Of a DNA stretch of 55,907 nucleotides, positions 11,801 through 55,907 are shown in pieces. This stretch comes from Promethearchaeota archaeon (lineage in GTDB: Archaea > Asgardarchaeota > Lokiarchaeia > Sigyniarchaeales > SOKP01): assembly GCA_048941265.1 (NCBI GenBank), contig JBHLNT010000010.1:1-55907 (forward strand), in the 5' to 3' direction. The notes under the pieces are model-generated. The model was not told the DNA's origin and did no database searches. It was given only the letters and a program-made list of their open reading frames with translations. The position numbers were made by a program, and so were the translations under genes. Numbering within the stretch: position 1 is the stretch's first letter; the number at the start of each line of letters is the position of its first letter.

Positions 11801-11811
11801 GGTGATGAGCC

Positions 11812-13404
11812 ATGAATGTCAAACTTAACGTATTTCGGTTTGATCCTAGTGTAGATGCGGAACCTCGATATGAAGTTCATGAAATACCCGCAGAAAGAGA
11901 AACCACCGTATTAGATGGTCTTATTTATATCAAGGAAAATTTAAGTTCTACTCTATCATTCCGGAGATCTTGTAGGGAAGGAGCATGTGGTTCATGTGCA
12001 ATGAGAATTAATAAAATATCCTCTTTAGCATGTAAAACTCATATTTTTGATGTATTTAAGAATAATTCTGTTTTAGTGGAACCTTTGGATCATTTTCAAG
12101 TTATAAGGGATTTGGTTGTTGATTTGGAACCCTTTTTTAACGGATTAAGCCATATTCGTCCATGGAGAATTGCAAATCTTTTAGAGGATAATGTAGAAAA
12201 GCCTCGCAAAATAGACATGAATAAATTTTTAAAGACGATGGAGGCAAAATCCTGTATCTTATGCGCTGCATGTTATTCGGATTGTAATGTGATAGATGTA
12301 GACAGAACATTCATAGGACCTGCTTCATTAGTTAAGGTTGCCCGATTTATGTCTGATCCGTGGGATTCCCATGATGGAAGGCTAAGAGAAGCAATAGATC
12401 TGGGTCTTTTTAAATGTCCGATAGACCAAGAATGTGAAATTGCCTGTCCTAAAGGCATTGATATTAGGAGAGGTGTAGTTGAATGGTTAAGATATCAATG
12501 TGCAAAAGATGGTTTAGGTCCTTTGCCTACACACAGACAGTTAGTATTGAATGTAATTAATACTGGCGGAGTTGTACCCATTCAGAACACCCCGGCATTT
12601 GACTTACTTCCAGAATATAATAAGGAATTTGAAGGAGAACCTCAGGCTGAAGTAGTATTATTTACGGGTTGTATAATCAATCGAAGACAGCAGGACACTT
12701 GCAAGGCAATAATTGAGATTTTTCAAAATAATAGAGTAACAGTTCACTTACCAAGAGCACAGACTTGCTGCGGGTCTCCGTTTATGAGGACGGGACAGAG
12801 AGATACGATGAGACCCTTTGTTGAAAGAAATTTTAATCTATTCAATGAGTTCGCGGAAAAAGGAATTAAACATGTCGTGACAAGCTGTTCTGGGTGTAAT
12901 TCTACCTTCCGGTTTGATTATCCCCAATTAGCAAAAGAATATAATATTCCAATGAATTTTGAAATTTATGATATCGGGGAATATATGGCAAAAATTATCA
13001 ACTTAAATACTAACGATTTGAAAGAATCTCCTCTTAAACTTATGTATCATTACCCTTGCCATATTAAGGCGTCCAAATTAGAAGAGGAAATATACATCGA
13101 TTTATTAAACAAAATTCCCGCATTAGAACTTGTAGACGCTCCGAAATCAGGTTTATGCTGTGGAGGAGGTGGAGGTGTGCGATCAGCATATCCTCAACTT
13201 TCGGATGATCTTGCATTGCGAAGAATTGAAATTGCAAAGGAATATGGTGTGACTGGTTTAGTGACTAATTGCCCCTTTTGCGTGATATCTTTTGAGCGGG
13301 TTTTGAAGATGAAAAAGGAGCAAGGAGAAGATATGGGGTTCAACCTTCATGACTTTTATCGACTTTTTGCCGATGCATATAAAAAGAAAAACGAAAATAA
13401 CTAA
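11812..13404 (+). CDS. SdhB/FrdB Fe-S domain fused to HdrB/D-like CCG domains (thiol:fumarate reductase TfrB-like)
   Basis: SCREGACGSC ([2Fe-2S]), CILCAACYSDC, CPIDQECEIACP, then FTGC...CCGSP...TSCSGC and HYPCH...CCGGGGG...TNCPFC. GAGGTGA precedes the start. Confidence 0.88.
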   Translation: MNVKLNVFRFDPSVDAEPRYEVHEIPAERETTVLDGLIYIKENLSSTLSFRRSCREGACGSCAMRINKISSLACKTHIFDVFKNNSVLVEPLDHFQVIRDLVVDLEPFFNGLSHIRPWRIANLLEDNVEKPRKIDMNKFLKTMEAKSCILCAACYSDCNVIDVDRTFIGPASLVKVARFMSDPWDSHDGRLREAIDLGLFKCPIDQECEIACPKGIDIRRGVVEWLRYQCAKDGLGPLPTHRQLVLNVINTGGVVPIQNTPAFDLLPEYNKEFEGEPQAEVVLFTGCIINRRQQDTCKAIIEIFQNNRVTVHLPRAQTCCGSPFMRTGQRDTMRPFVERNFNLFNEFAEKGIKHVVTSCSGCNSTFRFDYPQLAKEYNIPMNFEIYDIGEYMAKIINLNTNDLKESPLKLMYHYPCHIKASKLEEEIYIDLLNKIPALELVDAPKSGLCCGGGGGVRSAYPQLSDDLALRRIEIAKEYGVTGLVTNCPFCVISFERVLKMKKEQGEDMGFNLHDFYRLFADAYKKKNENN

Positions 13405-36660: not shown

Positions 36661-37716
36661 GTGATGAGGGATTTGAGATTTAGTTTCAGTATACCAGTTC
36701 CAACTCCAAGGCTTGAATATATGATCGATGGAACTAAAAAATCCGAGGCCTGTGGATTTTATTCGGTTTTTTATGCTGATCATACAACAATGTTGAATTC
36801 ACCAGGAACCTGCTACGATGCGTTTTCTTTCTTAACAGCTCTCGCTATGGAAACCAAGAAAATAAAATTATGTACGGGTGTTTCCGATTGTCATAGGTTT
36901 AATCCCGCTCTTATGGCTCACAAAGTGGCTACTTTAGATGTTTTTTCAAATGGAAGAGCCATGTTAGGGATAGGGGCAGGAGAAGCTATGAATATAGATT
37001 TATACGGACTTAAAAGAGAGAGATCTTATGCTAAATTAAGCGAATATATCGAATTATTAAGAAAATTTTGGACCAAAAAACGAGTGAACTTTGAGAGTGA
37101 ATTTTGGGGGACAATAAAAAACGGATTTATACAAATTAAACCAATGCAAAAGAGTCCCCCCATTTATGTAGCTGGAAATAGCCCAAAAACACGTAGATTA
37201 GCAGGTGAGTTAGGCGATGGTTGGTATCCTTTCGTAGAGACTCCTTGGACATATAAGGAGAATTATAAAGAGGTAGTGGAAGGCGCTAAAAACGTTGGTC
37301 GGGACCCATCTGAAATCGACTATGTGTACGACTGTTTTGTGGCAATTGACGACGATGATCCCCAAAGAGCAGTCGAAAGATGCGATTTTTTTAAAACCTC
37401 ATATTTAGTAAATCCAACCAAAATTAATCAAGCTTATCCAAATGTTGGTTTACCCGAGGATTTAACAATACATAATATACTTTTGGATGCTCCTGGAGCC
37501 GCTGATTTGTTAAAATGCATTGATCAATTGCCAACAACCATAAATGAAGATCTAAATTGCATTGGAACGACCGACGATGTGATTACAAGTATTGAGAAAT
37601 TTAAAAATTCGGGAACCACCCATCTGGCTTTAATGAACCGCGGTCCTGACGTGGATAGAGTCTATGAGATTTTTCGGAATAAGATTATACCGTATTTTAA
37701 TGAATTAGATAAATAA
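36661..37716 (+). CDS. Luciferase-like (LLM class) flavin/F420-dependent oxidoreductase
   Basis: YADH, ATLDVFSNGRAMLGIGAGE, PPIYVAG, AGELGDGW. Confidence 0.88.
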   Translation: MMRDLRFSFSIPVPTPRLEYMIDGTKKSEACGFYSVFYADHTTMLNSPGTCYDAFSFLTALAMETKKIKLCTGVSDCHRFNPALMAHKVATLDVFSNGRAMLGIGAGEAMNIDLYGLKRERSYAKLSEYIELLRKFWTKKRVNFESEFWGTIKNGFIQIKPMQKSPPIYVAGNSPKTRRLAGELGDGWYPFVETPWTYKENYKEVVEGAKNVGRDPSEIDYVYDCFVAIDDDDPQRAVERCDFFKTSYLVNPTKINQAYPNVGLPEDLTIHNILLDAPGAADLLKCIDQLPTTINEDLNCIGTTDDVITSIEKFKNSGTTHLALMNRGPDVDRVYEIFRNKIIPYFNELDK

Positions 37717-37870
37717 AATACAAGAACTATTTTTTTCAATTTTTTTTTAAAGGATATTCGATGATTTTTAATTGATAAATTAAACTGAATGAAACTATAA
37801 ATATTTTATAAATTAATTATTATCATCAATTGTTACTAAATCAATAAAATAAAAAAGGAAATGATAAAAG

Positions 37871-38938
37871 ATGGTTATAGAAACCAATATTACCAAAATG
37901 TTAGGGATTAAGCATCCCATAATTGCTGCTCCAATGGGGCCATTTTATACGACAAAACTAACAGTTGCCGTCTCCGAGGCGGGTGGGCTCGGAGTTATAA
38001 GTCATGCCTCTGAATTTGAACGCGAAGTCAGTGAGACATTACGTGATACTCAGAGCACACTAAAAGTTATGAAAAGGGATATGGAATACGTGGTTGAGCA
38101 TACTGACAAACCATTTGGATTTAATATAAGGACATCTCGGGTACAAATAGACGCACCATTGTTATGTAAGGAGATCCCGAAATTTATTATGGAAAATCCA
38201 AAATTAAAGGAACAATGTATATATGCAGTTACTAGCGCGGGATCCTCTAAGACACTACCAGAATCAAAATCATTCCAAAAATTAAAGGAAAGTGGTTCCC
38301 AAATAAAGCATTTTCATGTCGCACCCGCTTTATGGCTCGCCGATAAATGTGTAGCTTCAGGAGCAGATGGAGTAGTTATTACGGGAACCGAAGGTGGAGG
38401 ACATCAATCTTATGAAGAAGTCACTTCACTAGTACTTTTACAACAAGTTACGCAAAAATATCCCGATCTCCCAATTGTTGCATGTGGAGGTTTCGCAACT
38501 GGACAAGGATTAGCTTCTGCTTTATCTATGGGAGCAGGAGCAATCGCGATGGGCTCCAGATTCATAGCTTCACAAGAAAGCGAATTTCACCAAACTTATA
38601 AAGATATTGTACCCCCTGCAAGGGCTCAAGACACTTTATTGGCTACAGGCGCCTTTGGTCCCATAAGATTATGGAAAAACAAATATGCTTTCAGTCATCC
38701 TCTTGTAGGATCTAAAGAAGAAAAGATGGCTATGGAAAAACAAACCACCATTCAAGAATTTATAAAGGAATCACAAGCATATCGATTGATTTATGAAGGA
38801 AATACAGAAGATGGGGCTGTACTTCTCGGTCAAAGTATCGGTGTTATAAATAGTATAGAAAAAGTCAGCGATATTATCGAAAAAGTTGTTAGCGATGCCG
38901 AGAAAAGACTTAAAAGCGCGACATCCCAAATTAAATAG
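37871..38938 (+). CDS. Nitronate monooxygenase / FabK-like FMN enoyl reductase family
   Basis: PIIAAPMG, VSEAGGLG, KPFGFN, GTEGGGH, ACGG, MGSRF, GQS. Confidence 0.88.
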   Translation: MVIETNITKMLGIKHPIIAAPMGPFYTTKLTVAVSEAGGLGVISHASEFEREVSETLRDTQSTLKVMKRDMEYVVEHTDKPFGFNIRTSRVQIDAPLLCKEIPKFIMENPKLKEQCIYAVTSAGSSKTLPESKSFQKLKESGSQIKHFHVAPALWLADKCVASGADGVVITGTEGGGHQSYEEVTSLVLLQQVTQKYPDLPIVACGGFATGQGLASALSMGAGAIAMGSRFIASQESEFHQTYKDIVPPARAQDTLLATGAFGPIRLWKNKYAFSHPLVGSKEEKMAMEKQTTIQEFIKESQAYRLIYEGNTEDGAVLLGQSIGVINSIEKVSDIIEKVVSDAEKRLKSATSQIK

Positions 38939-39023
38939 ATATAATCAAATCAATTCATAAAAAAATTATCATTTTTTATTTTTATTTTTTCAATTAATTA
39001 AACTTTTAAAGAAAGAAAAAGGA

Positions 39024-41927
39024 TTAAAAGCTGATACCTTTCCTTCGAGCTATATATTTTACTATTTCGAAGGAAACAATGCAAATTAACGATACTAAAA
39101 AGCAAACTAACCAGTCCAAAGCCGTTAGATACATGAACATAAAATTAATGCCAGCTAAAGCTAAAGATATTTGAACTCCTGGAACATACATCAATGCGAG
39201 AAATATTCCAAATAACAACCCGATTATGATGTACATAAATTTACTGCTATCTTCAATAAAAGCTTTGATCACGGACTTATTTGGGCGCCTGATTTGAAAT
39301 ATAAGAAAACTTTCGCAAAAGAATAGGGTGACCATGAGCATTGTTAAAGCCTTTGCTATTTGCAAATTCATATTAGGTGTCAAATCCTTTGTTTCTGGGC
39401 TATAAAGATACCCGTCATTGAATGAACCGAAGTTATGGTTCTCAGGAAATACAGGATATACCCCTGTTAAAACCATAAAGTATGTTATAACCATGCATAG
39501 GGCGAGTAATCCCCCGAAGCAAAACATTAAGATGATAGTATTTCGGGAAAGAATCTCTTCTGAATCGCGCGGTTTTTCCTTCATTACATCTTCAGAAATT
39601 ATATCAAATGTTAATATTAACCCTGGAAATGCATGAAGGGTAATAGATAGAAATATCCATTGCCAATAGTATTCTTCATCTAAGAAATACGGTAAATCTA
39701 AGATCACAGCTAAAAGAAATTGTACTACTCCCTCAAAAAGATTTATACATATATAGAAAAAGACAACCGCACGGATTTTAGCGAAAATACCCCGCCCTTG
39801 GTGAATCCCCTTTACGATCGAATTAAATGAATCATCAGATATTACCATGTCAGAGGCTTCTTTTGCTACGTCAGTACCCTGAATACCCATTGCTATACCA
39901 GCATCTGCCATATTTAATGCTAGAGCATCATTAACCCCATCTCCGGTCATAGCAACTACTTTTTTTTCTGCCTGGTATCTTTCGATGATCTCCTGTTTAT
40001 GTTGGGGTGAAACCCTTGCAAAAACTTTAATTTGACTAAACTCATCAAAAGTTTTAAAATTCTTTATCTCATTTCCCTCAATTGCGAGATCGTCCTCATC
40101 AGATACAATAGATATCTGTTTTGCAATTGCCTTAGCTGTAGTTGGTGAATCCCCCGTAATCATTACTACTTTAACTCCTGCATTATGGCATTGCTCTACG
40201 GATTCCTTAACTCCCTCTCGGGGAGGATCTAAGATAGTAACAAATCCTATATACACTAAATTCGATTCACATAAGTCTCGGTTATTTTCTAAATCATGAG
40301 GTAGTTCTGTCATTTCTTTATAGCACAAGCTCAATATCCTATAACCTTGTTTAGCAAATAGATCTACATTATGTATGACTTTTTCTTTTAAATCCGGGGT
40401 AAGATCTTTTATAGTGCCATCTTTAGAGAGTATTTTAGAGCATAATGGTAATAGAATTTCACTTGCTCCCTTTGTAAAGGAATAGAATAAGGAGTCTCTC
40501 TTAAATACTTTAGACATTCTTTTAACCGATGAGTCAAACGGAAATTCCCTAATTGGTTCAAAATTTTCTATAATATAATCTCCCATCCCTTTTTGAAATA
40601 GGACCATTAATGCTCCTTCCGTAGGTGAGCCAATCACATTCCAATTATAAACGATTTTTCCATCTGTAGTTATTTCGTTTTTCACAAGAGCAGAATTATT
40701 ATTTAGAAATCCCGTAATTAATAATTGTTTTAATTGAGGATATTCATCAATATGAGAAACTAAAACCACGTTCTTAGGATCATTAATTAGAAAAATATCT
40801 CCTTCAGGGTCATAACCCGTTCCAGAAACTCTAAAAGTGGAACCATCAACCCATACATACTCAATACTCATTTGATTTTTAGTTAAAGTACCCGTTTTAT
40901 CGCTACAAACGACACTAGTTCGTCCTAAACTATCAACTGAAGCTAGATTTCGGATGATAACTCCATGTCGAGCCATCGCTAAAACTCCAGTAATTAAAAC
41001 TACAGTTGTCAACAATGGAATATTAATAGGCATAATATCCATAGCAGAATTCAGACTTTTTACGATATCTAACCTTGTAAATCCGCTTGCCACCCATATT
41101 ATCATTAGTGTAATAAACCAGAAAACTAATACTGCCAATCCTAACCATTTGCCAAAATTATTCATTTTTTTTCTTATAGGAATTTCACTTGTTCCAGCCT
41201 CTTCTAATCCTTGAGAAATTTTTCCAATTTCAGTGTTCCCTCCTGTGCTTACTGTTATTGCTGTACCATTTCCAGTGGTTATGTAAGTTCCATAAAAGAC
41301 CATATTTTTTCGACTTCCAATCGGAATTTCTTGTTCTTTCATAGCCACTCCTTTTTCAAACTTTTTAACAGGTTCACTTTCTCCAGTTAGAGATGCTTCA
41401 TTAACTTCAAGATTTGTGGATTGAATAATTCTTCCATCGGCCGGGATTTTATCTCCCTGACTTAACACCAATACATCTCCTGGTACGACTTTTTTGGTGG
41501 GAATATCTACTTTAGCACCATTTCTTATAACTGTGGTCGCCGGTGCGGATAGCTCCCTCAAGGCTTTCAATTTCTTTGTGGCTCTAAATTGCTGAAAAAT
41601 AGCTATAAAACAATTAATTGCTACAATTCCTAATGTTGAGACTATAAACGTTAAATTTCCTCCTAAACCATAAATTGATGCTAAGAAAATAACTAAAGCT
41701 CCAATTAGGTAAATCACGATAAGCCAATTAAAAAGTGGAGCGAGATAAATTTTGATAAATCCCTTTGAGACCTTAGGAATTTCATTGATTCCATACTTTT
41801 CTAATCGAACTTCCGCATCTTCAATATTTAACCCATCTTTAGGATTGGTTTGAAATTTCTCATAAATATCATTTAATTCCCATGAATAATAACTCTCATC
41901 TATTGGTTCAATTTCCGTGACTGTCAT
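39024..41927 (-). CDS. P-type ATPase, P2A-like scaffold with non-canonical transport site (M4 PINIP)
   Basis: LTGES, CSDKTGTLT, KGASE, DPPR, ITGD, MTGDGVNDA; about 10 TM segments. Confidence 0.92.
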   Translation of the reverse strand: MTVTEIEPIDESYYSWELNDIYEKFQTNPKDGLNIEDAEVRLEKYGINEIPKVSKGFIKIYLAPLFNWLIVIYLIGALVIFLASIYGLGGNLTFIVSTLGIVAINCFIAIFQQFRATKKLKALRELSAPATTVIRNGAKVDIPTKKVVPGDVLVLSQGDKIPADGRIIQSTNLEVNEASLTGESEPVKKFEKGVAMKEQEIPIGSRKNMVFYGTYITTGNGTAITVSTGGNTEIGKISQGLEEAGTSEIPIRKKMNNFGKWLGLAVLVFWFITLMIIWVASGFTRLDIVKSLNSAMDIMPINIPLLTTVVLITGVLAMARHGVIIRNLASVDSLGRTSVVCSDKTGTLTKNQMSIEYVWVDGSTFRVSGTGYDPEGDIFLINDPKNVVLVSHIDEYPQLKQLLITGFLNNNSALVKNEITTDGKIVYNWNVIGSPTEGALMVLFQKGMGDYIIENFEPIREFPFDSSVKRMSKVFKRDSLFYSFTKGASEILLPLCSKILSKDGTIKDLTPDLKEKVIHNVDLFAKQGYRILSLCYKEMTELPHDLENNRDLCESNLVYIGFVTILDPPREGVKESVEQCHNAGVKVVMITGDSPTTAKAIAKQISIVSDEDDLAIEGNEIKNFKTFDEFSQIKVFARVSPQHKQEIIERYQAEKKVVAMTGDGVNDALALNMADAGIAMGIQGTDVAKEASDMVISDDSFNSIVKGIHQGRGIFAKIRAVVFFYICINLFEGVVQFLLAVILDLPYFLDEEYYWQWIFLSITLHAFPGLILTFDIISEDVMKEKPRDSEEILSRNTIILMFCFGGLLALCMVITYFMVLTGVYPVFPENHNFGSFNDGYLYSPETKDLTPNMNLQIAKALTMLMVTLFFCESFLIFQIRRPNKSVIKAFIEDSSKFMYIIIGLLFGIFLALMYVPGVQISLALAGINFMFMYLTALDWLVCFLVSLICIVSFEIVKYIARRKGISF

Positions 41928-42018
41928 TAGAAGTTCTAATAGCTCCTATGATATACTTTTTCTAAAAATTATAATTAATTATAATAAAACTAATAATAAT
42001 AATCATTTTTAATTTATT

Positions 42019-44895
42019 CTAAAAGAATATATTTCTTCTTCGAGCATAATATTTAAAAAATTCAATTCCAAAAATACCTGGTAGGGCGAGTAATATGCAA
42101 ATTAACCAATCTGTAGCCGAAAGGAATAAAAAGTTAATTTGAAAATTAAGCTTTAATTCATCGTTTATTAGACTATTTAATTCATATGAATTACAAATAA
42201 CATATATATGAAATAACATCGTTATTGTGCAAATAATTAATAAAGTATAGGAGAAATCCTCATCTCTTAAGCTTTTAATTAATGACTTATTCGGCCTACG
42301 CATTGTCCAAATAAAGAAAGATTCTTCAATATATAAGGTAGTTATGAACATCGTTCTCGCTTTCATTGCTTCTAACTCTTCATAAGACGTACCTTTTGGA
42401 ATATAACTCAACTTAAAATATTCATTTGTATTCCAACCATTTAACGGGATGATCCCTTTTCGTGTTAACTCAATCGCTAATACAATCCCTATTCCCATTA
42501 AAAATGCCTGTATTAACAATAATACCCACATACTTTTGCTCAATAATTCCTCCTCATTTCTTGGAGGCTCATTCATAATATCTTTAGGTTGTGTATCTAT
42601 GACTAATGCTAATGAAGGAAGGGAGTGTACGATGCCAAAAATATATATATGTTGCCAATTTGAACTGAATAAAACAAAGGGTTCGAATTCGTAACCAAAA
42701 AATATTGTTGCTTCCATAATATTAAGACAAATGAAAAAGAAGATAATTGTTCTAATTTTAGAAAACAAACCCCTTCCTATTTCCACACCCTTTTCTATAG
42801 ATACAAAATTATCGTCAGATATAACCATATCTGCCGTTTCTTTGGCAACATCGGTCCCAGTGATACCCATGGCAATTCCTGCGTTCGCCATTTTTAATGC
42901 CAATGCATCGTTAATTCCATCGCCCGTCATCGCAACAATTTTATTTTCATTCTGATAATTCCTTACAATTATTTCTTTATCAGAAGGTGCAACACGGGCA
43001 AATACAGATACGTTTTTAAAGCCACTATTTGTTAAATCCTTAATTTTATTTCCTTCTACTACAAGATCACCCTCTTTATAAATTCTCATTTGAGAAGCAA
43101 TAGTTTTTGCTGTTGCCGGATGATCTCCGGTAATCATTATCACTTTTATTCCGGCAGCCTGACATTCTTCAACCGATTCCCTTACCCCTAATCGAGGGGG
43201 ATCGATAATTGATACAAAACCTAAGTAAATAAGATCTTCTTCTATTTCTTCTCTAATTGGTTTATCCACTTCTATTATCTTTCTATAAGCAATCGCTAAA
43301 GTCCTATAACCTTGGATCGCACGTCTATAAATTTTATTTGAAATTTCTTTTTTCAGTTTATTATTAAATGGCTTAATTTTCCCGTTAATCTCAATCTGAG
43401 AAGAAATATTTATAATCCTTTCGGGAGCCCCCTTCGCAAAGGCATATATTTCTTTTTCATTTTCGACCGAACTGCATATTGTAGTCATCCTTTTAAATTC
43501 AGAACTAAATGAAAATTCAACTAAGATATTGTATTTATTTTGAATATCATATGGGATATAGCCCGCTTTTTCTGCTAATACTAACAAGGCAGCTTCTGTC
43601 GGTGAACCTATTGCTCTTCTTACTGCCATTTCTTTCATCACACCTACGCTAACTTTTACATCTTCATAGGTGAGTTTGGCATTGTTATTTACAACAATAG
43701 AATCAATGAATTTTTGAAAGGTTGGACTTTCATTTAAATTAATTGCTTGTCCATTCTTTATTATTTCTCCTGGCTCATCATAACCTGCTCCAGTAACGTT
43801 ATATTCTATATTATTTATTTCGAATTTTTCTACTGACATCTCATTTTTCGTAATCGTTCCTGTTTTATCTGAGCATATCACAGAAACCCGTCCAAGAGAT
43901 TCAATAGCTGATAAATTTTTAATTATGACACCATTCTGAGCCATATTAAGGACCCCAGTTATTAAAACTAACGTCGCTAAGAGAGGCAAATTAATAGGTA
44001 CAACATTCATAGCCCTTAATATTGAATTAACGAGCGCGTTGCTGATTTCTTTTTCAACAAATTTGTTTTGTGCAATTAAAATGGAAAATTTATAGGTAAT
44101 TAAAATGATTAAATTTATTATTACTACTGTTCCTAAAATATATCCTAATCGATTCAATTTATGGGTTAAAGGAATATCTTCGATGCTTCCCATTTCATTT
44201 AATTGACTTGATATTTTTCCAATTTCAGTGTTTAAACCTGTGCCGGTTACCAATATTTTAGCCCTTCCAGTATTTACATAAGTGCCCATAAATACCATAT
44301 TATACTGTTCTTGTATTGGTAAATTGTCAGTCTCTTCAATAGTTTGATTATGTTTTACTACAGGTTCACTTTCGCCGGTTAATGGAGCTTCGTCGATGGT
44401 GAGATTGGTATATTCTATTATTCTACCATCAGCAGATACTTTATCCCCTTCTTTCAATATTACTATATCTCCTGGTATTAACTCTCGAGTAGGAATTTCA
44501 AATTCAAATCCATCCCTTAAAACCGCTGTTTTCAAGGCAGCTATCCGCTGTAGCGACTCCAAAGCCTTTTGAGCCCTATACTGTTGACTAATTGCGGTTG
44601 CCGAGTTTATAAGAACAACAGTAAAAGTGATAATTGTTGCCTCTGGTTGCCCTAAAATAATAATTATTACTCCTGTTATCATCAATAACAGGATCAGAAA
44701 ATTAAACAAAGGAGCCAAATAAATTCTCCATAAAGATTTCTTGATCTTTGGAAGTTCATTGTACCCAAATTGTAGATATTTTTCCTCCAATTGTTCAGAT
44801 TTTAAACCATTATTGAAATCAGTATTAAATTCTGAAATTAATTCATTTATGGGTTGATAATAATAGCTCTTCTTTAATTCATGTTCTTGTGTCAT
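42019..44895 (-). CDS. P-type ATPase, P2A-like scaffold with non-canonical transport site (M4 PINLP); tandem paralogue
   Basis: LTGES, CSDKTGTIT, KGAPE, DPPR, ITGD, MTGDGINDA; about 10 TM segments. Confidence 0.92.
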   Translation of the reverse strand: MTQEHELKKSYYYQPINELISEFNTDFNNGLKSEQLEEKYLQFGYNELPKIKKSLWRIYLAPLFNFLILLLMITGVIIIILGQPEATIITFTVVLINSATAISQQYRAQKALESLQRIAALKTAVLRDGFEFEIPTRELIPGDIVILKEGDKVSADGRIIEYTNLTIDEAPLTGESEPVVKHNQTIEETDNLPIQEQYNMVFMGTYVNTGRAKILVTGTGLNTEIGKISSQLNEMGSIEDIPLTHKLNRLGYILGTVVIINLIILITYKFSILIAQNKFVEKEISNALVNSILRAMNVVPINLPLLATLVLITGVLNMAQNGVIIKNLSAIESLGRVSVICSDKTGTITKNEMSVEKFEINNIEYNVTGAGYDEPGEIIKNGQAINLNESPTFQKFIDSIVVNNNAKLTYEDVKVSVGVMKEMAVRRAIGSPTEAALLVLAEKAGYIPYDIQNKYNILVEFSFSSEFKRMTTICSSVENEKEIYAFAKGAPERIINISSQIEINGKIKPFNNKLKKEISNKIYRRAIQGYRTLAIAYRKIIEVDKPIREEIEEDLIYLGFVSIIDPPRLGVRESVEECQAAGIKVIMITGDHPATAKTIASQMRIYKEGDLVVEGNKIKDLTNSGFKNVSVFARVAPSDKEIIVRNYQNENKIVAMTGDGINDALALKMANAGIAMGITGTDVAKETADMVISDDNFVSIEKGVEIGRGLFSKIRTIIFFFICLNIMEATIFFGYEFEPFVLFSSNWQHIYIFGIVHSLPSLALVIDTQPKDIMNEPPRNEEELLSKSMWVLLLIQAFLMGIGIVLAIELTRKGIIPLNGWNTNEYFKLSYIPKGTSYEELEAMKARTMFITTLYIEESFFIWTMRRPNKSLIKSLRDEDFSYTLLIICTITMLFHIYVICNSYELNSLINDELKLNFQINFLFLSATDWLICILLALPGIFGIEFFKYYARRRNIFF

Positions 44896-45024: not shown

Positions 45025-45981
45025 TTAGTCCTGTTGCTTAGGAGGCCCCAATATTTCTTTTAATATATGAAATTTTTTTCTTATTGTTGTGCTTGAAAAT
45101 TTTGTAGCCTCCTCAATTAAGCTTTGCGTAAATATCTTATTATTCTCTAAGCATTGCCCCACATAATAAATAAGTCCCGCAGTAAAGGCTTTATAATTTA
45201 GATTTTTTAAATGATTATAAGAAATTTCATTAAGTAATCCATCAGTAATTAATTGCATTTCAACCTGCAATTTATTGTATTCACCTTTACTAGGGATATG
45301 AAGTTTCACTTTCTCATATGGAATATTATGTAAATCCTTTCCAAAAAGTATCTTTATTCTATTTTTAATTTCTTTTTCTATATCGTTAGTAGTTTTAAAC
45401 TTTTTCCACATCTTCTCCGATTTTTTTACTTTCAACATCGCGTTATTTAGCATCTTCTTGTTTATTTTATGTCCTAGTTCATTAGAGATTTCTATAAAAC
45501 GCTCTATTCTAATATTAGTCGTATCTTTTATTTCCATCCATATTACTGCCAAAAATATAATGACCATGTTTTGATAGGACTTTCTGTGATTCCTATTATA
45601 CTTGAGATATCTCTTTTTTATTGCCCCATATTTGGCTGTATCGATGTTAATTCCATAGCTCTTCAAAAATTCTATGGTTTTTCGCTGCTCTGTGAAACTA
45701 GTTTGATAATCGCGGTACCATTTTTCTAGGGTTTGTATTCGATCATATTGTTGCTTAATTAACGGATCTTGCTTGGCTTTTGAATCTCTCACTCTAATAT
45801 TTCGTTCATAATCTAATTGACTTTCTTTATAATGATCATCTATTGGAATGGTATCAACGAAATCAATGTTATCTTCTAATACAATGCCACAATCTTGGCA
45901 TACGAGATATCCAGAATCCCGTTTCACGTTTTTGTGCTCACATTTGGAGACCTCTTGATTTCCGTGGTTAAGATTCGTCAA
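45025..45981 (-). CDS. Highly divergent TFB/TFIIB-like protein
   Basis: Zn ribbon CEH...LVCQDCGIVL; C-terminal cyclin/HTH-like segment AGLIYY...FTQSLIEEATKFSSTTIRK. TTG start. Confidence 0.7.
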   Translation of the reverse strand: MTNLNHGNQEVSKCEHKNVKRDSGYLVCQDCGIVLEDNIDFVDTIPIDDHYKESQLDYERNIRVRDSKAKQDPLIKQQYDRIQTLEKWYRDYQTSFTEQRKTIEFLKSYGINIDTAKYGAIKKRYLKYNRNHRKSYQNMVIIFLAVIWMEIKDTTNIRIERFIEISNELGHKINKKMLNNAMLKVKKSEKMWKKFKTTNDIEKEIKNRIKILFGKDLHNIPYEKVKLHIPSKGEYNKLQVEMQLITDGLLNEISYNHLKNLNYKAFTAGLIYYVGQCLENNKIFTQSLIEEATKFSSTTIRKKFHILKEILGPPKQQD

Positions 45982-46149: not shown

Positions 46150-46716
46150 ATGGAATATAAAGCGATCAAGAAGTGGGTAACAGGTTTTGGCTTTATTTTT
46201 ATTATTTGTTCCATAATTGAATTAATTAACACTTTTCTACTTCTTAACACTCAAGTGAAATTTAAAGGAAAAACATATACAGTGCAAGAATTGTTTTTTA
46301 GTTCAGGAAGAATGCCACCTACGACTCCATATATATTTGTCTTCTTAATCTGTTCCATTTGCTGTTTTTTAATTTTTGGATTCTTGCTAATTAATATTGT
46401 ATCGAAAGATATTGATTTTAGGTTAATGGCAAAGTATTTACTTGTTCTTGGAGTTTTAACCTTGCTCTTCTCATATATTAAAATGGGGTATATCACTTAT
46501 ATAGAACGAGGTAGAATGCACCTTAACGGGGATACAATTACATTTGGTTATTTTGTGTGGAAATATAATACTTCAGTTATCGGTCCATACTCCCTTCTTA
46601 TAGTTTGGACGTTTTATACTGCAACTGTGTGTGCCTATTTAATAATTGGCTTAGTATTATCCGGGGGAGGCCTAAGTTGGATATTAGAGCTTGAAAAACA
46701 ACAACCCAAAGATTAG
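46150..46716 (+). CDS. Membrane protein of unknown function, about 4 TM helices
   Basis: Four hydrophobic segments. Confidence 0.72.
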   Translation: MEYKAIKKWVTGFGFIFIICSIIELINTFLLLNTQVKFKGKTYTVQELFFSSGRMPPTTPYIFVFLICSICCFLIFGFLLINIVSKDIDFRLMAKYLLVLGVLTLLFSYIKMGYITYIERGRMHLNGDTITFGYFVWKYNTSVIGPYSLLIVWTFYTATVCAYLIIGLVLSGGGLSWILELEKQQPKD

Positions 46717-48608: not shown

Positions 48609-49547
48609 TTACAATTTGCTCTTGATCTGCTTGGCTCTACTTCTAAGTGTGACTTCCGTTATCTTTGCTACATCAGCTACTGCTGATTGGGTTTTGCGCA
48701 ATGAACCGTCTTTAGCTGCGATATAAATACAAGCTGCGGCTAAGCCCTTAGGATCTTTACCAGTACGTTTCAGTCCATTTTTCGAAGCTTGTTTCAGCAT
48801 ATCAATAGCAGTTTTTTGAATATTCATTGGCAAACTGAGCTCATTCCCGAAACGAAAGATCAAACTTTCTGCGGTGATTGGCTGATATTTTAGATTTAGT
48901 TCGGGTAATACTTCTCTTATGATCATAGCTAAACTTCTATGAACAGTTCTCCTTGGAGTTAAAGAAGCTTCACATACCTCATCAAGTAAACGAGGAAAAT
49001 CATGAACTCGTATTGCGGCATATAATGCTCCTGCAATAAATCCATTAATAGATCTTCCCATAGTCAATTTTTTCTTAGCAACAAGAGAGTAAATTTTCCA
49101 AGCACTATCAGAAATATATTCTGGAATACTTAACTTAGAACAGAGCATTTTTAATTTGGGCTTTGCTTCCCAAAAATTTCTCTCGATGCTTGAAATTAAT
49201 GAATTTTGAATCTTAGATAATCGTGAAAAGAGAGCTTGTTCTTTTGCTCCGATTGATTTTCCTTTCGAATCTGTTTTGGTATTTGGTAGCATAGTTCTCG
49301 GTCCAAAATCCCGCCAGCGCGGCTCGGTTCTTTTCCGATTCTGAATCTCCTCAATTGTATAGGCCCTTCTCTCGTTTCCTACAAATTCTTTTTGAAAAAT
49401 CATCCCGCAATTTAAACAAACTCGATTACCATCTCTTAAATGAATTGAGGGTTCCTCACAACAATCAGGATTGTTTTTAGGTAATTCTCCTTCTTCAAGA
49501 ATATTATTCCTATTATTTCTTAAAAATAATCTACGATTAGGTTCCAT
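48609..49547 (-). CDS. tfb: Transcription initiation factor IIB (TFB)
   Basis: Zn ribbon CC...VCLNCG, ERRAY B-reader-like segment, ERN, GRS...ALYAA.R...PR.LDE, GKDPKGLAAACIYIA, TQ..VA.VA.ITEVTLR. Confidence 0.92.
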   Translation of the reverse strand: MEPNRRLFLRNNRNNILEEGELPKNNPDCCEEPSIHLRDGNRVCLNCGMIFQKEFVGNERRAYTIEEIQNRKRTEPRWRDFGPRTMLPNTKTDSKGKSIGAKEQALFSRLSKIQNSLISSIERNFWEAKPKLKMLCSKLSIPEYISDSAWKIYSLVAKKKLTMGRSINGFIAGALYAAIRVHDFPRLLDEVCEASLTPRRTVHRSLAMIIREVLPELNLKYQPITAESLIFRFGNELSLPMNIQKTAIDMLKQASKNGLKRTGKDPKGLAAACIYIAAKDGSLRKTQSAVADVAKITEVTLRSRAKQIKSKL

Positions 49548-51740: not shown

Positions 51741-54700
51741 TTGGCGAAAAAAGTGGTCAATTTTAATAAAAAGCAAAAGATTGCTTTCACATTAATTTCC
51801 ATTATCTTATTTTCTGGTTATGCGCCATTGCTAGCAGATTATCTAAATAGATTTAATCAACCAAATGACGACATGGAAAATGGATTTGATCCAAACTTAG
51901 CGTATTATTTATATGAAAATAATGTCGTTAGCAAGTACAAATTTAATGCTGAAGGAGAATGTTTTATAATTGTAGAAATTGAAGACATAAATTTTACGTA
52001 TTTTATACTGGATGGCCAGATTTACTATGTGAGTTATGGGTTAAATATTATTCCTATTAACTTTGCTAATCCTAATGAGTCCCATAAAATTCTTATCGAT
52101 CCCTCTACTCTTGAATATTTCAAATCATTGACAGTGGAACCGCTTTTTTTAGCGACGGGTACGTTAGAAACTTCAAGAGATCTAGATTCAGTAATCAATT
52201 TTCAAGCGGGAGGGCCAATATCAATTTTAATTCGGCCAACGTTTGCTTATAATTGGTTATATGTAGAACTGAAAAATGCAAGTGGCGAGAGTACGCTTCT
52301 TAAGAGAATTCATGATACTGCAGATTATCCCGAAATTGATCCTTTATTTTATTGCTTATTTATTGAACGAGGTACTTATATTCGTTATGATATCAACCTC
52401 GAGCCTGGGGCAAACAAATTAATATTGCGAGGAGATGGTCAGCTGGAATATAAAATTCTCGTCAATTACGATTGGGATAAAGATTATCTGAATGACGTAG
52501 ACGAGGTGCAACAAACTGATATGTATCAAGCGTTCGATTTGAATCCTACCATTCCCGACATTTGGGGCTTTTTTGAGAAATCAGACGAGACCGTGTTTTA
52601 TACCAGTATTGAAGAAGAGGATTTTACAGAGGGCTTTTTCAGTTTTTATATACCAGAAACATATACTAACAATAAGTTAAAAATAGAGGTAAATAGCGGA
52701 GAATATAAAGATTTTGTAGTCGATGATGATTACTCCTTTCTGGAAGGAGAGGTGCTCATCTCTGACCGTACTTCTCCACCTGATTCGGTATTATATGGAG
52801 ATTTAGAAGCAGGGTGGCATTATGTAAGTTATAAACATAAAGCCAATTATACCTCTGAAATTAAGTTTCTCATCAATAATGTTCCAATTAAAGTATTAAC
52901 TTTTTCGGAATTAAAAGATACAGATGGAGATGGACTTAAAGATCAGCAAGAACTTACCAATGGTTTAGATCCTTCTACAACTGATACTGATGATGATGGT
53001 ATTCCCGACAATCTAGACGCCTCCCCTTTGGCTAAAATCGAATTAGATCCCCAAAATATCTATGAAGTTGTTATTCCCACGGATCTAAATGATGATACCA
53101 TAATTGACTTACAAATTAAAAAGCCAATTAATGACTATTCTACGAATGGCAATCCTAGAATGTGGAGAGAGACTTATAATGTCTCAATTTATCCCGTTCT
53201 TCGAATGTTTGGTAATAGATTTGAAGTTCCATTTGGAAATAGTAACGATAGAAGACCAATAAATAGGCAACAACTCTCTGATCTTTATGGAAAGGATATA
53301 AAACTTCTTTTTAATTCAGATCCCAGTTATAGCGTATGGGGATTAGGAGATTCCCTTCCTACACAAGATCCTGATGATTGGGATAGCGAGGTTCATTTTA
53401 TTTTCCCAAAACCCGCAATGGAGAGTATTTCGTATAGTATAAGAATTCCCCATGGTCACAGTTCGAAGGTTGATGGGCGTTTGCATTTACGATTTGATCT
53501 TATTTGGGTGGTTACGCGTTATGATAGTATAACACATCAAACTTCCGTCTTGCATTATTACGATTTCGAAGAACCCATTATCGTTCAAACGATGACCAAG
53601 CGCGAAGTATCAAATGTCGAATACCTCTTAGGAAATCCTGATTGTTTTATTGAAAATCAAATTCTCTGGACACTCACTCAAAATCCGACATTGGGAACTC
53701 CTGAAGAATTTGGCGTTTCTGATGATATCGTAGGGCGCGGGAATGTGAATTCTTTCGATTTAGGCTACCACACAGCGCAGGATAGAATGAATACTCCGCT
53801 CAAAGCAAATGAAACGGAAGTACTCTATCTGGCAGGTTCGTATCAAAATTATGATATTCTCAATAAGATTCATTTGAAAACACTCTCTGATCCAGACTTC
53901 GCTACTACTCATCAAGGAGATTTTGAAGTGCACTTTAGTTCTTATGCAGTATCCAATCTGTATGAAGACCAAGATTATAACATTGGAGATTCTGAGATTC
54001 AAGGTGAGAATAAACTCCTTTATCAAATTTATCACCATGAAATTTCTGAAAACAATGATGTACAGAGAGCAAGTATCATGGGTATTCCAATTGCCATGGA
54101 ATTGTGTGCGAACTCGAAAGTGCTAAAAATATCAAACGCTCAAGGATTTAACGTTCCTCTCGACCAGATACCATGGGACGATTCACAATTAGGTCCTAGA
54201 ATAACGCTCCAACATCTTACCTATATAGAGCAAGATATTCAAAATCCAGGTGTCCCCAAAATAAATTTCGAACAAGGAGTTGATATCTGTAAAGAATTTC
54301 TTGATAATCGGATTGATGAGGTAGAGCATTCGAATTTCTTTTTTACTTCTCAGCCTGACATGCCGGCAGAATCATTCCACTCCTTTATTAATGAGTACTG
54401 GACTCAACTTAATTCGATCGAGAATAGTATGGGTTTACTTTCTGATCTTGTTTCTACTACATCATTTACCAGTTTAAAGGAGAGTATCACTTTGATCATA
54501 AATAAGATTGACAATTTTAAACAACATTCCTTTTCAGAATTGAGTAATTATAATGAGTTCTTTCAATTTACTCAGATCTTAGAACGAGATACATCGGAAT
54601 TATTAGCGTCATTCACAGAACTCGAAAATCAGCATTCGGTTTCATTAGATTTTGCCGAAATGTTTCTCGGATTAACCATGAATTGTGCTGAAGAAATTAC

Positions 54701-55907
54701 CGTAATTAGCGAATATTATGATGAAAAATTAGTAACCAAACTGGAAATTCTCGAAAAAAATCAGGGTACCGAAGACGAAATAGTAAAGTTAAAAGCAAAG
54801 ATAAAAAGTGTACGGCTCTATTTATTTTGTACAGGAGTAATCTGCGCTGCATTGGGGGTTCTAATGATAATTAGTGGTATCCAAGAATTAATACAATTAG
54901 CCGCCGGACAAGGAGAATTAAGTGATTTTGAATACGCAATGAGATTGGCTAAAGCAATAGGGATCACTGTCGCCGGTACGCTTTTAGCCGTCGAATCACT
55001 TTTATTAATCGCTTCCAGCCTCAAAGCAGCCTGGGCAAGTACCCTGTCAAAGGCAATTACATGTCTTGGAGTGTTGGCTTTAGTTGTATCGGCTGTACTA
55101 TTTCTCCTCGACTCTATTGAATTTTTTAAAGCATTATATGCAGGGGAGGTCGGTGCTGCTGAAATTGCTAATTTTGTTATGAGTGCTCTTTCTCTTGCTT
55201 CCACTGCAATGATTGTTGCAGGAGGAGCACTTTTAGGAGCCGGGATCGTGCTAGGATTATCCGTTGCTCTTGGCTTTTTTCTAGTGTGGCTAATAGACCA
55301 TCTTTGTAATGATCCACATATAAGTATTGTCGATGATTTAACTCAAGTGTATTTTCCCTCACAAACAAACACAAATATGAGGAGAAACGGTGGACTAGAA
55401 GTGGGAGATTATGTAGATTTTAGATTGGTTGTTGATAACGATGGAAAAAACCCTTTTTATATGAGGGGTAAATTTATGGTGTTTGCTGACGACTGGGAAG
55501 GAACTAATGAAGGGTGGAAAGGCGAATGGGAAGGCATTAATTGGTATACTGGTTCTGGTCGTAATTATGATGAGAGATTTACCTCTCAAATCACGGATGC
55601 AACTCCAGAACTTCAATTTCGATTAGAATTCCAAGCTGATTACCGAGAATATAGTTTTTGGGATGATATTTTTGGAGATGGGTGGTCTCGAGTTGAGGCT
55701 GTCAGGCAAACTGTCGAGCAATCATTAAAGGTACACGTGCTAGAAAGTAGTATTTCCTCGTTCTATAGTCACACAGATAGTTACTTTTCTTATGCGTCTC
55801 TCTTACACCAATTTACTAGTGCCCTTGAAGAATATAGATATAAAGATGCGTATGATTTTACACGAGAGACGCAATCACGTGTAGAAAATAGTAGGAAACT
55901 CACCTTA
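51741..55907 (+). CDS. Very large secreted/surface protein (>1389 aa, runs off the window) with Ca-binding TSP3-like repeats and an internal hydrophobic helical bundle
   Basis: Absent from the ORF track because it has no stop in the window. I translated it by hand with no stop from TTG 51741 (alternative GTG 51753) to 55907. N-terminal signal/anchor KKQKIAFTLISIILFSGYAPLLA; repeat DTDGDGLKDQQELTNGLDPSTTDTDDDGIPDNLD at 52917-53018. Confidence 0.88.
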   Translation, partial: MAKKVVNFNKKQKIAFTLISIILFSGYAPLLADYLNRFNQPNDDMENGFDPNLAYYLYENNVVSKYKFNAEGECFIIVEIEDINFTYFILDGQIYYVSYGLNIIPINFANPNESHKILIDPSTLEYFKSLTVEPLFLATGTLETSRDLDSVINFQAGGPISILIRPTFAYNWLYVELKNASGESTLLKRIHDTADYPEIDPLFYCLFIERGTYIRYDINLEPGANKLILRGDGQLEYKILVNYDWDKDYLNDVDEVQQTDMYQAFDLNPTIPDIWGFFEKSDETVFYTSIEEEDFTEGFFSFYIPETYTNNKLKIEVNSGEYKDFVVDDDYSFLEGEVLISDRTSPPDSVLYGDLEAGWHYVSYKHKANYTSEIKFLINNVPIKVLTFSELKDTDGDGLKDQQELTNGLDPSTTDTDDDGIPDNLDASPLAKIELDPQNIYEVVIPTDLNDDTIIDLQIKKPINDYSTNGNPRMWRETYNVSIYPVLRMFGNRFEVPFGNSNDRRPINRQQLSDLYGKDIKLLFNSDPSYSVWGLGDSLPTQDPDDWDSEVHFIFPKPAMESISYSIRIPHGHSSKVDGRLHLRFDLIWVVTRYDSITHQTSVLHYYDFEEPIIVQTMTKREVSNVEYLLGNPDCFIENQILWTLTQNPTLGTPEEFGVSDDIVGRGNVNSFDLGYHTAQDRMNTPLKANETEVLYLAGSYQNYDILNKIHLKTLSDPDFATTHQGDFEVHFSSYAVSNLYEDQDYNIGDSEIQGENKLLYQIYHHEISENNDVQRASIMGIPIAMELCANSKVLKISNAQGFNVPLDQIPWDDSQLGPRITLQHLTYIEQDIQNPGVPKINFEQGVDICKEFLDNRIDEVEHSNFFFTSQPDMPAESFHSFINEYWTQLNSIENSMGLLSDLVSTTSFTSLKESITLIINKIDNFKQHSFSELSNYNEFFQFTQILERDTSELLASFTELENQHSVSLDFAEMFLGLTMNCAEEITVISEYYDEKLVTKLEILEKNQGTEDEIVKLKAKIKSVRLYLFCTGVICAALGVLMIISGIQELIQLAAGQGELSDFEYAMRLAKAIGITVAGTLLAVESLLLIASSLKAAWASTLSKAITCLGVLALVVSAVLFLLDSIEFFKALYAGEVGAAEIANFVMSALSLASTAMIVAGGALLGAGIVLGLSVALGFFLVWLIDHLCNDPHISIVDDLTQVYFPSQTNTNMRRNGGLEVGDYVDFRLVVDNDGKNPFYMRGKFMVFADDWEGTNEGWKGEWEGINWYTGSGRNYDERFTSQITDATPELQFRLEFQADYREYSFWDDIFGDGWSRVEAVRQTVEQSLKVHVLESSISSFYSHTDSYFSYASLLHQFTSALEEYRYKDAYDFTRETQSRVENSRKLTL

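Follow-up and report, generated by a model that had tools for sequence, protein, structure and literature searches.

The DNA considered here is a stretch of 55,907 nucleotides from a Promethearchaeota archaeon (assembly GCA_048941265.1, contig JBHLNT010000010.1), referred to as the window. Two adjacent genes on its minus strand, gene B (upstream) and gene A, encode paralogous P-type ATPases whose products are 41% identical over their full length. Both proteins have the P2-type domain architecture, with Pfam matches to Cation_ATPase_N, E1-E2_ATPase, Cation_ATPase, Hydrolase and Cation_ATPase_C. A first-pass annotation, made from the letters of the window, had described them as SERCA-like pumps carrying a flippase-like motif in transmembrane helix M4 and a histidine in helix M6. 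Judged from their sequences, both are intact P-type ATPases of the P2 type and belong to a separate archaeal clade, termed here the PxNxP/His clade or simply the family, in which the ion site appears to have been rebuilt. The open reading frames (ORFs) and the motifs that define them are as follows.

42019..44895, minus strand: gene B (P0002, 958 residues), uninterrupted ORF; paralogue of gene A, B-type sub-clade
41928..42018, minus strand: spacer of 91 bases between gene B (upstream) and gene A, from the ORF coordinates
39024..41927, minus strand: gene A (P0001, 967 residues), uninterrupted ORF; P-type ATPase of the PxNxP/His clade, A-type sub-clade
41376-41387, minus strand: gene A, TGES (motif search)
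41016-41030, minus strand: gene A, M4 PINIP, residues 300-304; Ile301 at the E309 position, Asn302 at the G310 position
40887-40901, minus strand: gene A, DKTGT (motif search)
39927-39944, minus strand: gene A, GDGVND (motif search)
39732-39746, minus strand: gene A, M5 INLFE; Asn729 and Glu732, the N768/E771 equivalents
39624-39647, minus strand: gene A, M6 SITLHAFP; His765 at the D800 position, Ser761 at the N796 position
39309-39329, minus strand: gene A, M8 TLFFCES; Glu872, the E908 equivalent
44368-44379, minus strand: gene B, TGES (motif search)
43984-43998, minus strand: gene B, M4 PINLP (motif search)
43855-43869, minus strand: gene B, DKTGT (motif search)
42907-42924, minus strand: gene B, GDGIND (motif search)
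42712-42726, minus strand: gene B, M5 LNIME (motif search)
42616-42639, minus strand: gene B, M6 FGIVHSLP; His757
42319-42339, minus strand: gene B, M8 TLYIEES; conserved Glu

All of the catalytic motifs (TGES, DKTGT and GDGxND) are retained in both copies at recomputed coordinates, and the recomputation reproduced exactly the positions first given for PINIP/PINLP and located SITLHAFP/FGIVHSLP, INLFE/LNIME and the M8 Glu in the helices first named. Helix M5, FFYICINLFEGVVQ in gene A and FFFICLNIMEATIF in gene B, contains neither Lys nor Arg. The P-domain hinge reads GDGVNDALAL in gene A (window 39927-39956) and GDGINDALAL in gene B (42907-42936); 44 of 46 canonical relatives have a Pro in this hinge (GDGVNDAPAL), whereas alignment A1 shows Leu there in 90% of its 50 family rows, and a sub-clade from Thermoplasmatota has Ala.

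In SERCA, Ca2+ site II is formed by the M4 Glu, the M6 Asn and the M6 Asp, whilst site I comprises the M5 Asn and Glu, the M8 Glu and the Asp common to both sites. Positional equivalences were taken from HMMER alignments to solved pumps, in columns that we take to be E309, G310, N768, E771, N796, D800 and E908 in SERCA numbering. Against Listeria LMCA1, the Ile of M4 aligns with the Glu of PEAL and the M6 His with the Asp of NDSLP. Against Na,K-ATPase and SPCA1, N..E falls on N..E, the His on the Asp of DLGTD/IIMDG and Glu872 on the M8 acidic residue. These columns were compared (P0001 numbering) between 62 family sequences, extending down to ~33% identity, and 46 canonical P2A-like relatives.

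The M4 Glu is missing from all 62 family sequences; its column holds I, L, V, F or W across the family, in place of the Glu of canonical PEGL-type motifs. At the following residue, 302, 47 family sequences have N, 14 have S and one has M, as opposed to G in 41 of the 46 canonical relatives. In M6, the Asn of the N796 column is replaced by S, A or G (Ser in gene A, Gly in gene B), and His765 is H in 61/62 family sequences where the canonical relatives have D in 44/46. Ca2+ site II, described at the outset as probably missing, is thus destroyed in both pumps. The residues assigned to site I, whose M5 N..E and M8 Glu had been reported as kept, behave differently: Asn729 is N in 58/62 (canonical 43/46), Glu732 is E in 62/62 (canonical 43/46) and Glu872 is E in 60/62, whereas the canonical relatives have E in 18 and Q in 27 of 46. 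On this alignment, site I is retained under tighter constraint than in ordinary prokaryotic relatives, its Asp now being His. At the cytoplasmic entry side, residue 64 in M1 is P (canonical Q) and residue 113 in M2 is Q (canonical E). The outcome is a conserved, apparently buried His/Glu/Glu/Asn (+Asn/Ser) constellation, the pocket geometry of which is read from the alignment. PMC4937031 states that PMCA, SPCA and other Ca2+ pumps with one site rely on site II, so the family, in keeping site I, would have made the opposite choice. The variability of the E309-equivalent column fits a plug of the cavity better than a conserved gate, and the near-invariant site-I glutamates, together with the His, point to a charged small substrate.

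This pattern is not peculiar to the window. The combination of P[IL]N[IL]P, M5 N..E and M6 His occurs in 120 of 122 sequences, comprising the window pair and its 120 best relatives (69-90% identity), and the two without the full pattern are truncated entries. The named organisms among these 120 relatives are all Asgard metagenome-assembled genomes (MAGs), and close relatives carry the database label 'Ca2+-transporting ATPase', bearing out the expectation that such pumps would be annotated automatically as Ca2+-ATPases despite the altered site. When 1.84 billion cluster representatives were searched with HMMER, the family pattern, or as much of it as the length of the entry permitted, was counted from the aligned columns in 45 of the 150 best rows; below ~540 bits the rows change abruptly to PEGLP / N..E / N..TD. 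A look-up of P0153 in the ESM Atlas returned generic cation-ATPase clusters only.

Two maximum-likelihood trees, both quick searches without bootstraps and rooted on the P3A pumps of the same genome, recovered the family as a single group. The first (69 rows, LG+G4) left out representatives shorter than 840 or longer than 1100 residues and two-thirds of the canonical rows. The second (68 rows, LG+C20+F+G4 with posterior mean site frequencies, PMSF) retained only alternate PEGLP rows and was supplemented with named rows from Asgard archaea and Thermoplasmatota as well as with labelled P2A/P2D rows. All 32 family rows of tree 1 and all 40 of tree 2 (stem 0.43) fall into one clade, with a value of 100 in each case in the Shimodaira-Hasegawa-like approximate likelihood ratio test (SH-aLRT). 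The tree comparison recommended with the first description was therefore realised in part: the clade is distinct from the rows labelled SERCA-type, PMR1-type and P2D by NCBIfam, whilst P4, P5 and eukaryotic rows lie outside both trees. Defined by M4 P-[ILVFW]-[NS]-[ILF]-[PVI], M5 N..E, M6 His, M8 Glu and monophyly, the PxNxP/His clade includes both window proteins. Genes A and B lie in different starred sub-clades in both trees, which marks them as old paralogues. The retention of the pattern among relatives, coupled with the SH-aLRT values, agrees with the original view of a conserved subfamily and indicates that the pattern reflects selection, neither chance nor decay. The MAGs behind four proteins 70-75% identical to gene A (P0016, P0081, P0088 and P0110) bear Thor-, Hermod-, Heimdall- and Hodarchaeota labels; the tight clustering of these proteins with the window protein suggests either that the bins are loosely labelled or that Asgard classes have recently exchanged the gene.

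A survey of 301 sampled genomes of the window's phylum, with P0001 as query and a threshold of E <= 1e-150, places the family in 219 of them (73%), in 77 of 90 genomes with a completeness of 90% or more, and in 63 of the 68 genomes of the window's family-level group, mostly as two copies. Most genomes outside the window's order have one copy. The threshold is near family-specific, since canonical paralogues from the window's genome get no further than ~1e-137, and in-frame stops were reported within none of the matches listed for the 301 genomes. A basal sub-clade, represented by P0162, has M4 PWSFP, M6 F/Y-STH and hinge GDGMNDAAAL. Its representative has 24 relatives of at least 56% identity, and the eight of these with an organism name are all from Thermoplasmatota. 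All 13 loci of a species-genome collection that are 59-100% identical to P0162 lie on contigs titled Thermoplasmatota or Thermoplasmatales, and the remaining 58 loci show at most 38% identity to it. In a sample of 301 Thermoplasmatota genomes, the PWSFP/His sub-clade was found in 16 (E <= 1e-170), three of which were author-added. The clade is consequently not restricted to Asgard archaea. The search for the motif in Asgard and other genomes that had been called for thus found the family near-universal in one phylum and patchy in another.

The class of the two proteins was assessed with NCBIfam hidden Markov models (HMMs). Scores are given in bits as gene A / gene B, followed by the cut-off of the model.

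TIGR01494 (P-type superfamily): 292.7 / 274.8; cut-off 62.3; above
TIGR01522 (PMR1-type): 463.3 / 441.0; cut-off 798.3; below
TIGR01116 (SERCA-type): 431.5 / 436.8; cut-off 703.4; below
TIGR01523 (P2D): 432.4 / 374.1; cut-off 645.05; below
TIGR01647 (P3A): 324.7 / 319.8; cut-off 615.5; below
TIGR01657 (P5): 230.7 / 226.3; cut-off 618.25; below
TIGR01652 (P4 flippase): 90.9 / 104.2; cut-off 431.25; below

Membership of the P-type superfamily is evident from DKTGT, TGES, GDGxND and the score above the TIGR01494 cut-off. The best-scoring specific models are P2A and P2D, and every specific pump model stays under its cut-off for both proteins. P2A pumps (LMCA1, SPCA1/PMR1 and SERCA) share with the pair a ten-helix P2 body, the Cation_ATPase_N and Cation_ATPase_C domains, TGES/DKTGT/GDGxND and the M5 N..E motif, and are its best matches in sequence and fold. 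However, their M4 PEGLP contrasts with P-[ILVFW]-[NS]-[ILF]-P in the family and their M6 N..(T)D with [SAG]..xH, so that the aligned Ca2+ ligand columns hold Ile, Ser/Gly and His. Unlike P2A, the family fixes the M8 Glu; it scores 431-463 bits under P2A cut-offs of 703 and 798, and it forms a separate clade. The P2D (ENA-type) pumps also have the P2 body, and with P0001 TIGR01523 ranks among the three best models (432 bits). P3A pumps (AHA2/Pma1) resemble the family in the Ile/Val at the E309 position of M4 and in a single small-cation site with few acidic residues. Nevertheless, they retain an M6 Asp (LNDLP) and an M5 Arg, whereas the family has an M6 His and an M5 N..E without Arg; they also differ in the four C-terminal helices, and the 320-325 bits of the pair on TIGR01647 compare with 712-970 for true P3A pumps. 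P4 flippases (ATP8A/Drs2, PISL) have, like the family, Pro then Ile at the unwound part of M4, and have lost the canonical cation site II. They differ in having DGET rather than TGES, and an M5 Lys and a CDC50 partner, neither of which was found here, the CDC50 search having had no positive control.

Other pumps of the same genome serve as controls. Canonical P2A-like pumps are represented by a tandem PEGL pair on contig C334 and a PEELP pump on C201, which score 105.2, 108.1 and 87.3 bits on the P4 model TIGR01652 and 205-249 bits on the P5 model TIGR01657. No locus in the genome exceeds the TIGR01652 cut-off. The C334 pair (C334:34124-36955 and 37222-40041; G000, loci L003 and L004) encodes proteins of ~957 residues each, with PEGLV, M5 NFDE and M6 N.ATDG, and reaches ~600 bits on the P2A models, below their cut-offs; as a second tandem pair, it indicates that P2 tandem duplication occurred twice in this genome. 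A canonical P2A-like paralogue from another genome of the phylum (G259:C1:1994276-1997011) has one in-frame TGA. Three P3A H+-ATPase genes are present, C17:4385-6271, C40:5745-7793 and C40:10608-12494 (loci L007-L010), the two on C40 lying close together. The two of them that were scored reach 970 and 712 bits on TIGR01647 (cut-off 615); M4 in the P3A pumps of this genome is PVALP or PIALP. Finally, the P2D-labelled relative P0226 (721 bits on TIGR01523), which belongs to a different clade from the family, has an M6 segment ...VSSPPP with Ser at the aligned D800 column, that is, also without the Asp, but keeps the M4 Glu (PEAL).

Structural comparison supports placement among P2 pumps. The best matches of a phmmer search of the Protein Data Bank (PDB) are LMCA1, SPCA1, Na,K-ATPase and SERCA. 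An AlphaFold2 (AF2) model of P0001, with a predicted local distance difference test score (pLDDT) of 87.3 and a predicted template-modelling score (pTM) of 0.82, resembles P2 pumps in the E2/E2P state. The top 50 Foldseek matches to this model are all P2 pumps, for example SERCA2b (7w7u, TM score 0.77). The top 50 of a VIA comparison on Foldseek's top 1000 (Z 29-34) comprise P2A/B/C pumps, PfATP4 and the P3A pump Pma1. SPCA1 (8iwt) aligns with Z 34.0 and a root-mean-square deviation of 4.8 over 869 residues, and the Pma1 structures (Z 30-31), like P2B, P2C and PfATP4, are tied a few Z units below the top. As the P2 and P3A rows are tied to within ~1-3 Z, the fold does not separate those classes. 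P4 flippases are absent from the 50 rows shown by Foldseek and by VIA, although further families may match beyond those rows.

These observations are best accommodated if the cargo of both pumps is a small inorganic cation, not Ca2+, that passes through a single rebuilt pocket, a prediction that we regard as likely. A single small cation would be bound in the His/Glu/Glu/Asn pocket and moved by the usual E1-E1P-E2P-E2 alternating-access cycle, in which the His would be a ligand or, alternatively, an intrinsic group that takes up and releases a proton. As to the cargo, we lean slightly towards H+ or another monovalent cation over a transition metal, because fewer negative charges would be present in the site and in the entry funnel, where the M2 Glu has become Gln, and because precedents exist in the Ile/Val of P3A M4 and in P0226, which has no Asp at the M6 column. 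A divalent transition metal (Mn2+/Fe2+/Zn2+ class) would be a close second, since a His with two carboxylates (and amides) is a typical ligand set for Mn, Fe or Zn. Presence in 219/301 genomes of the phylum, and in 77/90 of the more complete ones, fits a housekeeping ion function. The pumps may then constitute a P2 subfamily with a His-centred single site and a cargo class previously unassigned to P2 pumps, such as Fe2+/Mn2+/Zn2+, or H+ via a His-Glu relay.

Several points weigh against transport of a non-Ca2+ cation. Histidine is a poor and unusual ligand for Na+ or K+, which weakens the monovalent option other than H+, and a further H+ pump would be redundant in a genome that already has three P3A H+-ATPases. 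A metal-binding N-terminal domain is absent, and no metal regulator or antiporter is conserved beside the pumps across 21 loci. The hydrophobic M4 residue, the loss of site II and the loss of the hinge Pro are shared with P4/P5 pumps, so that a non-ionic cargo is conceivable. Finally, the substrate and the His/Glu/Glu/Asn geometry are predictions from alignment, and eukaryotic P2B/C/D, P4 and P5 references lie outside both trees, the pair being placed relative to these classes by HMM scores only.

The strongest competitor is that the pumps are lipid flippases, or transporters of an amphipathic or organic substrate, which arose independently of eukaryotic P4 pumps; we consider this unlikely. 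The hydrophobic M4 residue would then act as a gate along an M1/M2/M4/M6 groove, with the His, Glu and Asn handling a polar head group. P4 and P5 pumps have a hydrophobic residue in M4, no site II and a hinge without the Pro of GDGVNDAPAL, and P4 flippases have a conserved M5 Lys. The pair has likewise lost site II, its hinge GDGVNDALAL is without Pro, and its genomic context assigns no ion. The motifs of P4 pumps are DGET in the A domain and PISL in M4, according to PMC4937031, and P-I-N-[IL]-P resembles the latter, with Ile at the E309 position. The same source notes that the column filled by the Ile of PISL in P4 pumps holds Ile or Val in P3-ATPases; the P3A H+ pumps of this genome, with PVALP or PIALP, accordingly deprive the hydrophobic residue of any P4 specificity, and in the family its column varies among five residues. 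The P4 HMM scores of 91 and 104 bits fall within the 87-108 range of the three canonical P2A-like paralogues, so the pair has no extra likeness to flippases, and the suggestion of P4 likeness or of a P2A-to-P4 intermediate is not upheld. Both copies have TGES instead of DGET and an M5 without Lys, counterpoints that the first-pass annotation itself had raised and that stand, and M4 shares Pro-Ile alone with P4. CDC50 (PF03381) had no match in the genome (G000, 91% complete), and none in 14 control genomes, so that this search lacks a positive control. Conserved lipid-metabolism neighbours were not seen at the 21 loci. The two near-invariant buried glutamates, together with the His, argue for a charged small substrate and hence against a convergent flippase too. 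The pumps are therefore probably not lipid flippases. Were they so, they would be the first prokaryotic P-type ATPases moving a non-ionic cargo (an archaeal lipid or amphipath) on a P2 scaffold independent of P4, an improbable outcome.

It is less probable still, and in our view very unlikely, that the proteins remain Ca2+ (or Mg2+) pumps working through the retained site-I residues. Their best database matches are Ca2+-ATPases, and the M5 Asn, the M5 Glu and the M8 Glu are all kept. However, none of the 62 sequences has the M4 Glu, and in 61 of them the Asp common to both SERCA sites has become His; the site used by one-site Ca2+ pumps is site II rather than site I (PMC4937031); the scores lie ~300 bits below those of typical P2A relatives; and the canonical PEGL/N..E/N..TD paralogues and the PEELP pump of the genome could serve Ca2+.

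Transport of another small cation thus remains the preferred reading, and the genes around the pumps add no functional hint. In the window, the neighbours encode a luciferase-like oxidoreductase, a nitronate-monooxygenase-like protein, a DUF362 protein, a TFIIB-like zinc-ribbon protein, a 188-residue four-helix membrane protein and TFIIB. The protein adjoining gene B (45025-45981, minus strand; 318 residues) has a weak TFIIB zinc-ribbon match only, and a regular TFIIB lies two genes further on (48609-49547, minus strand). The 188-residue protein (46150-46716), with four transmembrane helices predicted by eye, has no Pfam match and is not CDC50-like; its gene does not adjoin the pumps and is conserved in no group other than that of the window. 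An ORF of at least 1389 residues (51741-55907, plus strand) runs off the window end. The neighbourhood survey covered 21 loci, namely that of the window and 20 drawn from 19 further genomes of its phylum, with Pfam run on recurrent neighbours. Genes A and B are in tandem in four of the five loci of the window's group and separated by two genes in the fifth, and a single family pump is present in 16/16 loci of other groups. The order pump A, pump B, TFIIB-like gene, four-helix gene, TFIIB is kept in the four window-group loci that have the four-helix gene. No neighbour cluster occurs in more than five of the 21 loci and none extends across family-level groups, which is why the context is uninformative. 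Recurrent neighbours include subtilase, PanB, UFM1-ligase-like, GNAT, Lon-like, M29 peptidase, molybdopterin-binding domain and presenilin-like proteins, among others. At three loci of another family-level group (L017-L019), the pump is flanked by a subtilase and a protein with an E3 UFM1-ligase domain, a domain family of eukaryote type; in L017 the latter has 661 residues (10865-12850, plus strand; PF09743, E 1.5e-10), with equivalents in L018 and L019. At L015 (genome G213), the gene immediately downstream of the family pump encodes a presenilin-family protein (11250-12623, plus strand; PF01080, 70.8 bits).

That the tandem pair forms an obligate A/B heteromer, or that one copy is a non-pumping regulator, with the 188-residue protein as a subunit, is the least credible alternative: A and B do adjoin in the window and in three of four other loci of the same group, with two genes between them in the fourth, and the four-helix gene keeps its place in four of these five loci, but most genomes outside the window's order have one copy, so that the pumps need not act as a heterodimer, some same-group genomes (G109, G077) have A and B on separate contigs, every catalytic motif is kept in both copies, and the 188-residue gene, without a Pfam match, is separated from the pumps by the TFIIB-like gene and is absent from 16/16 loci of other groups.

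No published description of the clade was found, papers in subscription journals being outside the search, and literature matches to PINIP and the other motifs were unrelated words only. Asgard archaea are unmentioned in the available part of a 2023 review (PMC10654040). A study of the Asgard transportome (PMC7997004), in its available part, mentions no more than a 'putative Ca2+ ATPase, TC 3.A.3.2.21', which occurs in each of the five Asgard proteomes, and uses these orthologues to argue that Ca2+ signalling matters in Asgard archaea. If those orthologues belong to the PxNxP/His family, part of the argument would rest on pumps that are unlikely to bind Ca2+. The original idea of an uncharacterised subfamily is in keeping with the separate clade, with scores below the cut-offs of all specific models and with the outcome of the literature search, and the family is apparently a large, mis-annotated and undescribed subfamily with a new site chemistry. 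The findings lend no support to an Asgard origin of P4 flippases.

Subfamilies of P-type ATPases are defined by the chemistry of their transport sites. An invariant His would add a new type of site to the P2 pumps, since the position is Asp in every characterised P2 pump compared, save for one P2D-labelled relative, and the clade that carries it is found in 73% of the sampled genomes of the phylum closest to eukaryotes. The family would thereby offer a testable case of a two-site pump that became a one-site pump by using the opposite site from that employed by PMCA, SPCA and LMCA1.

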